A stretch of DNA of 64,000 nt from a virus (lineage: Duplodnaviria; Caudoviricetes): IMG/VR virus record IMGVR_UViG_3300033069_001536, positions 2,386-66,385 of that record. The stretch is one strand, 5' to 3'. The first letter of the stretch is position 1. Each line of letters starts with the position of its first letter. Below are positions 3,205-15,645 of the stretch, one piece after another. Made by a program: the position numbers and the translations under genes. The notes beneath the pieces were generated by a model. That model was not told the DNA's origin. It searched no databases and was given only the letters and a program-made list of their open reading frames with translations.

Positions 3205-3489
3205 ATGAGCATATTAACCATCAAAGGCAAGATCAACAAAATATTTCCTGTAGAGGGAGATAAAGATAAATTCCAGAAGCAGGTATTCTGGATGGATTAC
3301 GAGGAGAATGGATTTTTTCAAACCGTAGCATTTGAATGCTGGAAGAATAAAATGTACCTGATCCAGAACTGTGTTGTCGGTGAGACTGTAGAGGTGTATT
3401 TTAATGTGATGGGCAGAGTGCATGAAAACAAGTGCTACAATTCACTCAGGGTATGGAAGATAGTTTCAGAAGCTAATGGAAATGGATGA
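3205..3489 (+). CDS. DUF3127-family OB-fold / SSB-like protein
   Basis: TIKGKINKIF..FQKQVF..QTVAFEC..VGETVEVYFNVMGR..YNSLRVWKI pattern. Confidence 0.75.
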   Translation: MSILTIKGKINKIFPVEGDKDKFQKQVFWMDYEENGFFQTVAFECWKNKMYLIQNCVVGETVEVYFNVMGRVHENKCYNSLRVWKIVSEANGNG

Positions 3490-3760
3490 TGGAAAAGAAT
3501 AAGATATATAACATGAATTGTCTAGATGGTTTAAAACTATTGGAAGATAATTCAATTGACTGCTGTGTGACTTCTCCTCCTTACTGGGGATTGAGAGATT
3601 ATGGAAATGATGCGCAAATTGGTATGGAGGAGATTCCGGACAAATTTGTACAATCATTGGTAGATGTTTTTACCGAAGTAAAGCGTGTATTGAACTTAAT
3701 CCGGAATATATAAAGATAGCAGAGAAACGGTTGTATAAGAGTTTAGGTGCTTTTTTATGA
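3486..3760 (+). pseudogene. internally deleted N4C/N6A DNA methyltransferase
   Basis: N-terminal IDCCVTSPPYWGLRDY..EVKRV joins out of frame to C-terminal IELNPEYIKIAEKRL; SAM-binding motif absent. Confidence 0.8.
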
Positions 3761-4161
3761 AAGTAAAGATCTGTTCCAGGTGTGAAAAGCCAGTAGAGAA
3801 GTATGGAAATGCTTTTAAGAAACTTTGTGTCTTTTGCAATCGGGACCGGTTGAATGAGAATAAGCCTAAGAAGTATAGCAGTATAAAGCCGAAGTTCAAA
3901 GAAGCCAGTGGTGAAGCAGAATTATTTTTGCAGCTGTGGAAAGAACGAAAGCATGAATGTACGAACTGTGGAATATATTTGGGAGAAGAAATGAAAACTT
4001 GGTTTTTCTCACATATAAAAGGTGGCAAAGGTGGAATTCATAGTGAATTGAGACTTGATCCGACTAACATCGTTTTCCATTGTTGGGACTGCCACCACTG
4101 CTGGGGCGATCGTGGAATTGACGCATTTAACGCAAGAAAAGACATTAATAGAAAATCATGA
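3757..4161 (+). CDS. HNH/NinG-like Zn-binding nuclease
   Basis: N-terminal CxxC..CxxC, then CTNCG..SHI..LRLDPTNIVFHCWDCHH. Confidence 0.65.
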   Translation: MKVKICSRCEKPVEKYGNAFKKLCVFCNRDRLNENKPKKYSSIKPKFKEASGEAELFLQLWKERKHECTNCGIYLGEEMKTWFFSHIKGGKGGIHSELRLDPTNIVFHCWDCHHCWGDRGIDAFNARKDINRKS

Positions 4162-4455
4162 AACCGCATTCCCGGTCAGTGTAGGCTCCACTACCGGGAC
4201 TTTCACTGTGATCTCAGAGTAAAGAACTTCTACTTGGATATTGTATTTGAACTTGAAATTAAGGATTTCGCGATCAATATTTATGGGCTGGAAACAAGTA
4301 ATCATGAGATGTTGTTTTCCTGAGTGCAGGTAGGGTTGCGAGAATTTGCACATAAATCCTTTTTTTTCTGGTTTCTGAGCTTTCCCGAACTTTCTTTTGA
4401 TCCTCCAGGCGTATCCTGGAGAACCGGTGAGTAAGACACAATTAAATATTTCCAT
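4156..4455 (-). CDS. hypothetical protein
   Basis: 99-aa ORF, last of leftward run, converges on 3757..4161. Confidence 0.45.
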   Translation of the reverse strand: MEIFNCVLLTGSPGYAWRIKRKFGKAQKPEKKGFMCKFSQPYLHSGKQHLMITCFQPINIDREILNFKFKYNIQVEVLYSEITVKVPVVEPTLTGNAVS

Positions 4456-4500
4456 GTAGTGTTTCTTTGGTGTCGATGTAGTGGAGTTTGAGCATGGGGG

Positions 4501-5583
4501 TTAGATGTCTGTTTCTTGTATTGCTTTGAATATTTGAAGAGCTACTTGCGGAACGATTGCATTGCCTGCCGCCATTATGCTTTGCTCTCTCCATTTAGGA
4601 AAGGTAATTCCGTCCAGTCGGAAGGAAAGCCCATCATTTCTAAGACAAATTGGGGATTGAGTTGGGAAGTTTTCCCAGTCGTTAATTCCATTTCCGCAAT
4701 TTGATCGGTCAAATTTCCTTTGCCCCTCTTGTCCGATGTATTTCCCCTGGCTGATTGAACTGTCGGAGTGCAAAGAAATTTTACTACTCTCGTTAATTTC
4801 ATTGAGTGCATCGAACCCTCCTTTACTTGTGTGCTTTTCATTGTTGCAGTTGCATTTGTCGCATCCATTGCAGTCGGGGTTGGTATCATCCCCTTTATCA
4901 CATTGCTTAATCCCTGTTGTTTGCTTTTCGCACTTCTCCGGTCTGAGCAATCCGGAGTCGGTAAAAGTTTGTAAAACATGATTGAATCCATTATACTGTT
5001 CGGGCTGTTCTCTCCGTTCTTTCTGCTCATCATTGTTGTTGCCCCTGCCTCCAATAATCCCTCCACTCTTTCCGGATGGTCTCTTTGCACACTTGTCGGA
5101 GTAGGCAACAAACCATATTCTGTCTCTTCTGTGGGGAGCGTTGACGGCGCAAGCTGGAAGTAAAAACGGTAAGACTTCAAAGCCTTGATTTTCCAAGTCA
5201 GATTGCACCTCGTCGAATACCAACCCTCCATTCCAATTAGTGAGGCCGCGAACATTTTCGCCCAAAACGTAGCGCGGTTGAATCTCTCGAATTGCTCTAA
5301 GCATTTGCGGCCAGAGATGACGTTCATCTTCTTTGCCTTTCCGCTTTCCTGCGTTGCTGTATGGCTGACACGGGAATCCTCCGGTAAGAATGTCAATTGA
5401 TCCTCTGTGAATAGTGAAGTCTGTTGTAGTAATGTCATTATATGATGTAGCGTTAGGCCAGTAATGTTTTAATACTTTTTGTCCGAAAGGATTCCATTCA
5501 CAATGAAAAACGTTTTCCCATCCCATCCATTGAGCGGCAAGATCGAATCCACCAATACCGCTGAAGAGTGAACCGTGTCTCAT
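4501..5583 (-). CDS. dcm: C5-cytosine DNA methyltransferase, alpha polypeptide
   Basis: motif I FSGIGGF, IV GGFPCQPYS, VI ENV, VIII HRRDRIWFVA, X AGNAIVPQVA; motif IX missing in this frame. Confidence 0.9.
   Translation of the reverse strand: MRHGSLFSGIGGFDLAAQWMGWENVFHCEWNPFGQKVLKHYWPNATSYNDITTTDFTIHRGSIDILTGGFPCQPYSNAGKRKGKEDERHLWPQMLRAIREIQPRYVLGENVRGLTNWNGGLVFDEVQSDLENQGFEVLPFLLPACAVNAPHRRDRIWFVAYSDKCAKRPSGKSGGIIGGRGNNNDEQKERREQPEQYNGFNHVLQTFTDSGLLRPEKCEKQTTGIKQCDKGDDTNPDCNGCDKCNCNNEKHTSKGGFDALNEINESSKISLHSDSSISQGKYIGQEGQRKFDRSNCGNGINDWENFPTQSPICLRNDGLSFRLDGITFPKWREQSIMAAGNAIVPQVALQIFKAIQETDI
4575..5438 (-). CDS. nested alternative-frame polypeptide of C5 methyltransferase (beta chain, motif IX-like)
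   Basis: 287-aa ORF on the same strand, wholly inside dcm; repeated (L/I)PTP units and C-terminal LNPQFVLEMMGFPSDW. Confidence 0.7.
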   Translation of the reverse strand: MTLLQQTSLFTEDQLTFLPEDSRVSHTATQESGKAKKMNVISGRKCLEQFERFNRATFWAKMFAASLIGMEGWYSTRCNLTWKIKALKSYRFYFQLAPSTLPTEETEYGLLPTPTSVQRDHPERVEGLLEAGATTMMSRKNGENSPNSIMDSIMFYKLLPTPDCSDRRSAKSKQQGLSNVIKGMIPTPTAMDATNATATMKSTQVKEGSMHSMKLTRVVKFLCTPTVQSARGNTSDKRGKGNLTDQIAEMELTTGKTSQLNPQFVLEMMGFPSDWTELPFLNGESKA

Positions 5584-13372: not shown

Positions 13373-13576
13373 TTATTGATTATCACTTATTAAAAGTGCT
13401 CCGATTGAATCGGGCGGAACTGTTCCGACAATTCTACTACCATCGTACACAGTAACACTATCAGAGTCAATAATCAACTGATACTCTGTTTCGCTTAACT
13501 TATTGCTACTGAGTAGAAAGGAGGAATAGAAGGAAATAAGGAATAAGACGATGGCGGTTTTTAGGAATTTCATCAT
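13373..13576 (-). CDS. small exported/membrane protein
   Basis: N-terminal signal-like hydrophobic segment. Confidence 0.55.
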   Translation of the reverse strand: MMKFLKTAIVLFLISFYSSFLLSSNKLSETEYQLIIDSDSVTVYDGSRIVGTVPPDSIGALLISDNQ

Positions 13577-15645
13577 ATTTGCTTGTTAAGTACTACAGTA
13601 ATAGTTTGAACACCAGTTGAACGAAAGGCAGAGAGGAAAGCGTCCGGATCATTCTTGTACATGTAGCCGTTAGATTCAACAAAGTTTCTGAAGTCCTGAA
13701 TCTTTGCCCGTTCTCCGTCTTTGTTTCCTGCCATTATTGCTACCAGTCTACCGCCTTCGTTTAAGAGACTGAATGCGTGCATAACATGGTCAATATCTTG
13801 TAAGTTTTCGAAAGGCGGATTCATAACAATACGATCGTATTTTCCTGAATGCTGTAGAAAGTCCTCGTTAACAGTATCAAAGCCTTTAATCTCCAGCACT
13901 TCTGCAAGTGAGTTGCATTGCTCAATTACTGTTAATTTATTCTCCGGGTGCGCTTCTCTGATCGACTGGGCTATGTGTCCCAATCCTGCGGAGGGTTCTA
14001 AAACTGTGTTTCCTTCTACTATTTCCGCTTCTTCAACTATTTTGCTGGCAAGGTCTTCAGGTGTTGGGAAAAATCCGTCTATTTTTTTACCTATAAAAGA
14101 TCTTTCGAGTTGTTTTAGTTTCGCTTCCTGTACTTGCTCCGGTGTTTTATCTGCTGTTAGTGAGATCATCTCACGAATAGCCGCCCGAAGTGCCGGAAGT
14201 GTATCTAAATCAAGTCTTTTTAATCTTTTGATCTCTGCCAGGCTGTTTTTATATCGCTCTGCACTCCATTTATCCCAAAGTACAGAGGTCTGACAAAATA
14301 CTGTTTCGTAGTCTTCTAACAAGCTCCATGAGTCAATAGTAAGAGTCTCTTTACTTCCCAATTTGCTTAAAATCCGATTGGAAGCTAATTTTTTGCCGTC
14401 TGTCTCCCTGCAAATGTGTAAATGTTTTAATACATTGCTTGCATAGATCACCGGATAAGGAATAGAAACGTAAATGGCGGTTTCTTCTGTTACTTCGTAG
14501 TTCTCCGATCTGATATTTTTCTCCCTCATGTGCTTGTATTTGGCTGCGCTTAATACATGTTTGAGGGTCTCCAGTTCTGTAATAGTTGACAATTTATTGA
14601 GGTGGTTAATTGTTCCGGCTTCGATTCCATTTGCAATATTTATGAGGGTTTTACCAAATGCAATTGAATTAGAGGCTTTTTGCTCTGCGCTTGCTGCCTG
14701 TGCTGCTCTTCTGTGTGTGTTGTCTTTGCGGTCCCGGTTTAACTCCTCTTGCCCGTCTTCAACTAATTTAGTGCCTTTTTCTCTTAAAATCTCGGCTCTG
14801 GTCTGTTCTTTGTGTTCAATGCGTGCTTCGACTTCCTCCTTATTACTGCCTCCGTCTATGAACTTTTCAGCACTTGATTTGTCAAGGAAAGTAAAACCGG
14901 CTATGGCTCCGCCTTTATTGTAACTGCTGTAATAGCCTCCAAATAACTTTGCACGCTGCGACAAACTTTTAAAAACATCTGATTCAACACGATTATTCAA
15001 TGAGCATACAAATAAATCGTGGCCTTTCTGGGTGTGTTTCGTTTCGTTTAATGTGAATTCTTCCCCTACCGATTGAACATTTTTGATCTGTTGTTGTTCT
15101 TTCTGGGCGTGGTGTGTGATCCCTGCAAGCTCATCATATCTTTTTAACTGTTCGGCTGTTAACTTTGCCTCACCAAAAATTCGAATAAAACTTTTGAATT
15201 CTTCTAAGGTCTCCGGATTGGTTAACATTTTCTTTCTGGCTGCAATCGCTGCTTTTTTCTCCTCTGCCCACTTTAAAAAATCCGCTTCTGTGACTGAATT
15301 CAAAACTCTTTGTTGTGCCTGATCTCCTGTTTCTGCTCCTTCTCCGTGTAAAAAATAGCCAACGGTTTTACCGACAAGGAAATAAGATTCTAGGCCGTCC
15401 AAAATATCGTCTATAAAATCCGCTTTTTTAGTAGAATACGTATAATTGAGCATCTTTTTAAGATCAACAACTTTTAACAGGTTTAACTCTGCTGTATAGG
15501 CTGCTTTGTTCTCTTTGAAGGTGTTAAAAAGTACATGATAATTGCAAAAATCGCCTTCGTGCATAGAAAATAAGGCCTTTTTGAAGTCTTGAAGATTCAA
15601 GTTTTTAAATTCTGTAGTTGATTGTAGGTTTAATTCTGCTTGCAT
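13573..15645 (-). CDS. N6-adenine DNA methyltransferase with long helical N-terminal region
   Basis: C-terminal FFPTP, VLEPSAGLGHI (motif I), IVMNPPF (motif IV), GGRLVAIM. Confidence 0.85.
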   Translation of the reverse strand: MQAELNLQSTTEFKNLNLQDFKKALFSMHEGDFCNYHVLFNTFKENKAAYTAELNLLKVVDLKKMLNYTYSTKKADFIDDILDGLESYFLVGKTVGYFLHGEGAETGDQAQQRVLNSVTEADFLKWAEEKKAAIAARKKMLTNPETLEEFKSFIRIFGEAKLTAEQLKRYDELAGITHHAQKEQQQIKNVQSVGEEFTLNETKHTQKGHDLFVCSLNNRVESDVFKSLSQRAKLFGGYYSSYNKGGAIAGFTFLDKSSAEKFIDGGSNKEEVEARIEHKEQTRAEILREKGTKLVEDGQEELNRDRKDNTHRRAAQAASAEQKASNSIAFGKTLINIANGIEAGTINHLNKLSTITELETLKHVLSAAKYKHMREKNIRSENYEVTEETAIYVSIPYPVIYASNVLKHLHICRETDGKKLASNRILSKLGSKETLTIDSWSLLEDYETVFCQTSVLWDKWSAERYKNSLAEIKRLKRLDLDTLPALRAAIREMISLTADKTPEQVQEAKLKQLERSFIGKKIDGFFPTPEDLASKIVEEAEIVEGNTVLEPSAGLGHIAQSIREAHPENKLTVIEQCNSLAEVLEIKGFDTVNEDFLQHSGKYDRIVMNPPFENLQDIDHVMHAFSLLNEGGRLVAIMAGNKDGERAKIQDFRNFVESNGYMYKNDPDAFLSAFRSTGVQTITVVLNKQI

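Follow-up and report, generated by a model that had tools for sequence, protein, structure and literature searches.

M.AquI and M.EcoHK31I are the only two-polypeptide C5 DNA methyltransferases that are named in PMC3404938. In M.EcoHK31I (Escherichia coli HK31; YGGCCR), reported by Lee, Kam and Shaw in 1995, the beta polypeptide is encoded inside the alpha gene in another reading frame, the target-recognition domain stays on alpha, and beta contributes motif IX only (PMC2836561, PMC3404938). M.AquI (CYCGRG), reported by Karreman and de Waard in 1990, is a two-subunit enzyme split within the variable region, and its subunits are not described as nested (PMC3404938). Here we analysed a 64,000-nucleotide (nt) stretch of phage DNA, hereafter the window, which is positions 2,386 to 66,385 of the IMG/VR virus record IMGVR_UViG_3300033069_001536 (66,385 bases, estimated 92% complete). 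One gene of the window very probably specifies, by way of two reading frames, the chains of a heterodimeric C5 cytosine DNA methyltransferase: a catalytic alpha chain and, nested in it, a modular beta chain. This two-polypeptide reading is well supported by comparative evidence and structure prediction, from which we infer the translation of both chains, their binding and their roles. The two open reading frames (ORFs) are both on the minus strand:

4501..5583, minus strand: alpha gene (frame A), 360 amino acids (aa); C5 DNA methyltransferase large catalytic domain, long linker, then motif X helix
4575..5438, minus strand: beta gene (frame B, shifted +1 from A), 287 aa, nested entirely within alpha

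The beta ATG is located 145 nt past the alpha start, therefore beta is in the +1 frame, and its end is 74 nt short of the alpha end. The stretch open in both frames is 864 nt, which corresponds to 80% of the 1083-nt alpha gene. An initial annotation, made from the sequence, had described a 360-aa frame in which motifs I, IV, VI, VIII and X accompany a filler-like variable region, a nested 287-aa ORF with four short units and a motif IX-like end, and about 860 nt of coding in two frames. All of these descriptions held, and the length of the overlap exceeds chance by synonymous shuffling, as described below.

Motifs I, IV, VI and VIII, the profile score and the fold of the large domain all place alpha among the C5 methyltransferases. 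Its score against Pfam PF00145 was 152.8 bits (E 1.9e-44; cut-off 22 bits), residues 1-162 aligned to M.HhaI 14-172 (phmmer, E 1e-19), and its predicted model matched M.HaeIII and M.HhaI over about 170 columns (Foldseek, E 7e-13). The AlphaFold2 prediction of alpha alone was confident only at residues 1-170 (predicted local distance difference test score, pLDDT, about 90) and 341-360 (82-87), and residues 341-359 form a confident helix. The features of alpha are as follows, with invariance scored over 63 sequences:

5548..5565, minus strand: motif I, FSGIGG, residues 7-12 (S-adenosylmethionine, AdoMet, binding); invariant
5356..5379, minus strand: motif IV, GFPCQPYS, residues 69-76, with catalytic Cys72; G69, F70, P71, C72, Q73, P74 and S76 invariant
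5251..5259, minus strand: motif VI, ENV, residues 109-111; invariant
5113..5133, minus strand: motif VIII, HRRDRIW, residues 151-157; H151, R153, R155 and W157 invariant
4684..5088, minus strand: linker (the filler), residues 166-300; unconserved, hydrophilic, kept merely stop-free
4573..4677, minus strand: pre-motif X segment, W.NFPTQSPIC..DG....LDGITFPKWR.QSI, residues 303-337; family-specific, selected in both frames; F306, P307, C313, D317, G318, L323, T327, F328, K330, W331, R332 and S335 invariant
4543..4566, minus strand: motif X, GNAIVPQV, residues 340-347, just past the beta stop codon; G340, N341, A342, P345 and Q346 invariant

In the linker, most columns have no consensus residue, the pLDDT is below 50 (27-45), and the hydrophobic content is 16%, compared with 40% in the remaining alpha. 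A single-chain enzyme holds motif IX, motif X and the target-recognition domain together. At this locus they are divided: motif X is in frame A, and the canonical-looking motif IX (MMGFPSDW) and all conserved sequence of the variable region are in frame B.

The beta chain ends in QLNPQFVLEMMGFPSDWTELPF and carries its four anchors at residues 111 (LPTP), 159 (LPTP), 185 (IPTP) and 222 (LCTP). Apart from the modules led by these anchors, it has two parts:

5109..5438, minus strand: beta residues 1-110, over the alpha catalytic core (alpha 49-158); position of the ATG start conserved
4590..4664, minus strand: motif IX-like segment, QLNPQFVLEMMGFPSDWTELPFLNG, beta residues 259-283; nucleotides shared with alpha 307-332

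Motif IX was assigned from the sequence pattern alone; L260, F264, V265, E267, M268, M269, G270, F271, P272, W275, P279 and F280 are invariant in this region. The nucleotides of alpha motif VIII are also those of the first GLLPTP anchor region of beta, where beta G109 is invariant and T113 is at least 90% conserved. No match to beta was found in Pfam, and beta matched phrog_1008, 'DNA methyltransferase', with E 1e-24. Its homologues amount to 2123 protein clusters at E ≤0.001, with a Pfam domain in none of the 120 listed, and a search with the C-terminal half gave 1919 representatives at 50% identity.

The nesting is conserved among relatives. A locus passed our strict test when frame A enclosed frame B, both were closed by stops, and the motifs were present. 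Strict nesting was found in 73 of the 85 loci of the viral set (80 viral contigs, 3 phage records and 2 metagenome contigs) and in 55 of 80 loci of species-representative bacterial genomes, whose hosts are mostly Bacteroidota, e.g. Flavobacterium, Pedobacter, Mucilaginibacter and Alistipes. The offset of frame B was +1 in every passing locus (128 beyond the window). The loci that did not pass were mostly cut by a contig end or outside the motif patterns, and those inspected had variant motifs (L057, L103), a masked run of N (L091) or an interrupted alpha around an intact beta (L052, L119). As the initial annotation would expect, frame B was open in every intact homologue inspected. About 54 Paenibacillus larvae phages show the same nesting, with a beta 28% identical to that of the window and both coding sequences (CDSs) annotated. 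In 2 metagenome contigs the gene caller kept frame B only, leaving a gap at the alpha start, and the full alpha frame is present around beta. In Bacteroides phage BKO1-TP3, alpha only is annotated.

The position of the beta start is also conserved. In most of 73 loci the first beta ATG is 130-145 nt past the alpha start (range 70-184), with minority groups at 70 and 166-184 nt. Counted from the closest frame-B stop upstream, the ATG comes one to a few codons later in most loci, and up to about 33 codons later in a few. The beta ATG of the window, at +145 nt, spans the alpha Asn-Asp codons (AAT GAC), and the commoner site in relatives, +142, is one alpha codon earlier. The start has moved and is nevertheless present; it has thus been retained despite the codon shift.

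Single-chain relatives were sought as well. A search with beta for longer proteins gave 5, none with PF00145, and the ten longest of the 150 best beta representatives had no Pfam domain. L091 was considered as a single-frame relative and rejected as an artefact of its masked N run. Therefore, no single-chain, ancestor-like form was found, and the existence of such chains in actinophages was not confirmed.

Three loci showed exceptional arrangements. In the viral locus L052 (1236-2447), six in-frame bases, TAA CTT, lie between GGFP and CQPYS and place a stop just before the catalytic cysteine; the nested beta (316 aa) is intact. Alpha may be inactivated here, or the insertion may be an assembly error. 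In L119 (1344-2369), from a Flagellimonas metagenome-assembled genome, alpha falls into two parts, an N-terminal ORF of 134 aa and a detached C-terminal piece, and beta (265 aa) is intact, which is a second instance of beta outliving alpha, or a long-read sequencing error. In L005 (2871-4841), the alpha frame extends to 656 aa through a separately called downstream gene (4302-4841), the usual stop apparently having been lost.

Both frames are kept open and under purifying selection. We permuted synonymous codons, keeping the amino-acid sequence and codon content, at 53 loci. Shuffling the A core gave an expectation of 3.7 frame-B stops over about 116 codons and left a locus free of stops with a probability of 0.008; no stop was observed. 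Shuffling the B modules gave 5.9 expected frame-A stops over about 149 codons (probability of no stop 0.0026 per locus), again with none observed. For the window gene itself, 1.5% of A shuffles left frame B without a stop across the catalytic core, and 0 of 200 B shuffles did so for frame A across the module region.

The diversity at the three codon positions follows the same division. In frame A it was 0.20/0.15/0.49 at alpha 1-47 and 0.13/0.12/0.55 at alpha 337-355, the usual coding pattern. At beta 183-217 it was 0.22/0.20/0.52 in frame B, as expected when only frame B is selected, and in the motif IX overlap it was low at all three positions. Synonymous codon diversity of alpha was 0.50-0.52 where alpha is alone, which served as the reference, and fell to 0.42 over beta 2-52 (p 0.008), to 0.33 over beta 53-114 (p 5e-5) and to 0.115 over beta 255-286 (p 3e-8). 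In the other direction, that of beta was 0.52 where alpha is filler (reference) and 0.255 where alpha 303-334 is conserved (p 7e-5). Four zones can thus be distinguished: one for alpha only, a second where alpha dominates and beta is constrained, a third for beta only with alpha as stop-free filler, and a fourth where both are conserved. This last zone spans about 90 nt (about 4580-4670), and the same nucleotides there encode conserved parts of both proteins.

These data bear on the idea that frame B or the frame-A linker is untranslated and is open as a by-product of nucleotide composition or because the other frame is constrained. In the catalytic core, most conservation of B does follow from A, and the second codon position of B is the most variable there. 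However, shuffles that keep amino acids and codon content still predict 3.7 and 5.9 stops, the module region has a clean signature of frame-B selection, and the synonymous sites of alpha are suppressed exactly where B is conserved. Moreover, alpha residue 121 has no majority residue, yet the co-encoded beta Trp73 is invariant. We therefore regard an untranslated frame as extremely unlikely.

Another idea is that the two frames yield one chain by programmed frameshifting, in which the ribosome would begin in A, move into B by a +1 shift once past motif VIII and return to A before motif X, or shift just once. The order A-B-A gives the canonical motif order and spacing, with MMGFPSDW about 15 residues before GNAIVP. 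Frameshifting, however, needs the frames to be open only where they are used, whereas in every intact locus A is stop-free over about 135-220 codons and B over about 115 codons that would be unused; the shuffle probabilities of this surplus openness are 0.003 (A) and 0.008 (B). Furthermore, the conserved segments HRRDRIWFVAY of alpha and GLLPTP of beta share nucleotides, as do alpha 306-332 and beta 258-284, and each is separately selected. Since these junction segments are co-encoded and each is under its own selection, no single chain could hold both. The beta stop lies 47-164 nt before the alpha stop, and this variation means that there is no fixed return site. At the beta end of the window no obvious slippery heptamer was seen, with no systematic search for slippery sites having been made.

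The locus L086 (2323-4483) is informative in this respect. Its alpha has 201 aa with motifs I-VIII and ends right after motif VIII. Its beta (P0123) has 660 aa with ten xPTP anchors and motif IX, followed in the same frame by FPTQSPV...GNAICPQV, that is, motif X; the two ORFs overlap by 428 nt. In this locus a single +1 shift would yield a complete chain, which is a point in favour of frameshifting. On the other hand, alpha ends here once motif X sits in the beta frame, from which it follows that frame A stays open over the modules only when it has to reach motif X. Taken together, frameshifting into a single chain is very improbable as an account of this gene, and two separate polypeptides remain the preferred reading.

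If alpha and beta are two polypeptides, they may form one enzyme. We co-folded them with an alignment for each chain, in three runs and with three controls. The interaction prediction score from aligned errors (ipSAE) was 0.88 (runs 0.89, 0.88 and 0.88) versus 0.00 for the best of the three controls, which agrees with the heterodimer of the initial annotation. In a benchmark, 58 of 80 solved complexes and 2 of 110 mismatched pairs attained the ipSAE mark. The runs shared at least 61% of contacts, and the partner pLDDT was 54. In the predicted complex, beta motif IX (258-283) contacts alpha 10-15, 33-41, 149 and 344-346, near motifs I and X. Beta 57-70 contacts the last helix of alpha (350-358), and beta 87-98 pairs with alpha 138-152, so that the predicted interface includes beta 57-98.

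Several points weigh against a heterodimer. Beta has no relative in Pfam or among Protein Data Bank (PDB) sequences: single-sequence and profile searches against the latter gave chance hits only (ankyrin repeats, E 0.09; phosphoinositide 3-kinase domain, E 0.07), and an ESM Atlas search gave no usable hit. Beta alone folds poorly (AlphaFold2 pLDDT 53), too poorly for a fold search, and its residues 2-52 are weakly constrained. Thus, a role of beta as the small domain rests on motif resemblance, position and the co-fold. The co-fold in turn may partly mirror what the model remembers of solved methyltransferases with a single chain. Residues alpha 139-143 and beta 93-96, which make its tightest contacts, are encoded by nearly the same nucleotides, and covariation of shared nucleotides could yield such contacts in the case of paired alignments. 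No such co-encoding applies to the contacts of motif IX and of the helix.

It is also conceivable that both chains are made and act separately, alpha alone being a working short-type methyltransferase and beta having another role such as regulation or DNA binding. The conserved pre-motif X segment of alpha (LDGITFPKWR) could be a degenerate motif IX, and the lack of detectable homology of beta to solved methyltransferases is compatible with another role. However, alpha has no conserved sequence at the position of the recognition domain, and the sole canonical-looking motif IX is on beta, where the co-fold sets it against alpha motifs I and X. The alpha-beta pair is co-inherited across phyla, and in L086 beta is fused to motif X and thus tied to the enzyme. 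Separate action of the two chains is therefore unlikely, and we favour the heterodimer.

Beta carries modules at the position of the target-recognition domain. To define them, 139 beta proteins were split at the xPTP anchors, and the bodies were clustered without the anchor at strict coverage. Clustering with the anchor retained was rejected, since it merged nearly all modules via the shared anchor and split at a false KSTQ anchor. We obtained 419 modules, 39 types with at least 3 members, and 113 module orders in the 139 proteins, with 1-10 modules per protein. The window has the order D-R-A-F, four distinct xPTP-led types of 26-48 aa:

4965..5108, minus strand: module 1, beta residues 111-158, LPTPTSVQRDHPERVE..., type D; 14 members
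4887..4964, minus strand: module 2, beta residues 159-184, LPTPDCSDRRSAKSKQQGLSNV, type R; differently placed in L052
4776..4886, minus strand: module 3, beta residues 185-221, IPTPTAMDATNATATMKSTQVKEGSMHSMKL, type A, the commonest; 56 members
4665..4775, minus strand: module 4, beta residues 222-258, LCTPTVQSARGNTSDKRGKGNLTDQIAEM..., type F; always the last module in the loci examined

The initial annotation had taken the four units for repeats. Because they fall in four different types that have only the xPTP anchor in common, they are not repeats of one another, and this part of the annotation has to be corrected. The types change places among relatives. Type D is first in the window, third in L005 and seventh in L086, and type A (TAMDSTNATATMKSSQVKEGSMHS) occurs at index 1, 2, 3, 4 or 6. 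Judged from sequence comparison, such shuffled orders fit tandem modules with several target specificities, as the initial annotation had suggested. We tentatively consider that the xPTP modules might be interchangeable target-recognition units, each order giving a different set of methylated sequences, and that the layout might be a device for fast-evolving, multispecific anti-restriction. Since alpha need only stay stop-free over the modules, recombination could then swap modules between phages without harm to the catalytic chain. Two beta relatives, P0124 and P0125 (560 and 610 aa), have between their modules an insert of about 110 residues without an xPTP anchor (...LANKPMLKRT.LPPQ.EFVEWIR...HWFR.DAKGFSHPSI..W...), which resembles an extra domain inside the module array.

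These results suggest the following organization. Translation of frame A would give alpha, with the AdoMet-binding and catalytic domain (motifs I-VIII), a disordered linker of about 135 residues, the conserved segment of about 35 residues and the motif X helix; the sole requirement on the linker would be the absence of a stop codon. Frame B would be translated from its own start, the conserved ATG about 145 nt into alpha, to give beta, which would consist of about 110 N-terminal residues overprinting the alpha core, the four modules at the position of the target-recognition domain, and the canonical-looking motif IX. Beta would dock mainly via motif IX and residues 57-98 onto the motif X helix of alpha, the region around its motif I and the strand that precedes motif VIII. 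The two chains together would rebuild the usual two-domain enzyme.

The gene is the only C5 methyltransferase gene of the record, and its nearest named relatives are in Bacteroides phages BKO1-TP3 and BS-TP4. A megablast search of phage records with 20 kb of the window gave no match. The neighbours are of the replication type: an initiator-like ORF and a primase/helicase-like ORF upstream, and an adjoining NinG/HNH-like ORF. No restriction nuclease was identified beside the methyltransferase gene. Given the location in a replication module and the absence of an adjacent nuclease partner, it is most likely that the gene methylates phage DNA against host restriction.

Other features related to methylation or lying near the gene were as follows:

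3477-3760, plus strand: apparent remnant of an N6/N4 DNA methyltransferase, comprising a 75-aa ORF with an SPPY motif (PF01555, E 2.7e-4, under the family cut-off) and an out-of-frame piece (3611-3760, plus strand) ending in ...IELNPEYIKIAEKRL, which resembles the usual C-terminus of N6/N4 enzymes
3757-4161, plus strand: Cys/His-rich 134-aa ORF directly after this remnant, converging on the end of the C5 gene and weakly matching two families, NinG/Rap junction endonuclease (phrog_5034, E 6e-5) and, at E 4e-4, HNH endonuclease (phrog_144)
13573-15645, minus strand: 690-aa protein whose C-terminal 150 or so residues match SAM-dependent (AdoMet-dependent) methyltransferases (Methyltransf_23, E 4e-7)

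The N6/N4 remnant has no gene middle and is therefore probably a decayed gene. The 690-aa protein is a second methyltransferase, unrelated to the C5 gene, in the phage early arm.

If both chains are made, this overlap (864 nt, 80% of the gene) is among the longest conserved same-strand gene overlaps in DNA phages and is common to several bacterial phyla. Its doubly conserved nucleotides would offer a natural setting in which to follow the evolution of two proteins encoded by one sequence. What was a single precedent of 1995, M.EcoHK31I, would become the standard design of a family with about 1900-2100 protein clusters. Gene callers keep one frame, so that databases hold a methyltransferase without a recognition domain, or a 'hypothetical protein'. 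If both chains are made, predicting the specificity of phage methylation from just the annotated one would therefore give a wrong result.

Finally, we compared the window gene with known systems. The CDS pairs of the Paenibacillus larvae phages (e.g. TADHANA_54/TADHANA_55, MG727700.1; phrog_1008) are homologous to it and have the same nesting with the +1 offset; they are annotated as 'DNA-cytosine methyltransferase' only. Two methyltransferase genes appear in the Paenibacillus phage genome paper, which is silent on nesting (PMC6070908). Full-text searching of the literature for such a layout found no description of the present family. The division of M.AquI is nearly the same as that of L086, where alpha has motifs I-VIII and beta has the modules, IX and X. 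In the window gene, in contrast, motif X is on alpha and 864 nt are dual-coding.

The Bacillus phage enzymes M.SPRI, M.Phi3TI, M.Rho11sI and M.H2I are, according to work attributed to the Trautner laboratory, multispecific orphan C5 enzymes, and their variable region reportedly holds tandem, exchangeable recognition modules of about 40 residues with one target each. The window gene resembles these enzymes in being a phage orphan with tandem short modules, whereas the Bacillus enzymes are single-chain. M.EcoHK31I is part of a restriction-modification system, and in this the phage orphan of the window differs from it. The initial annotation had equated the two architectures. On comparative evidence this holds for the two nested polypeptides: the beta ORF lies wholly inside alpha, alpha has motifs I-VIII as well as X, and beta has motif IX. 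It does not hold for the remainder, as compared with the published description of M.EcoHK31I: in the window gene the modules at the recognition position are on beta, alpha has filler there, and the beta N-terminus overprints the catalytic core. On the best reading of the sequences, therefore, the layout of the window gene would differ from that of M.EcoHK31I in carrying its recognition-position modules on the nested chain.

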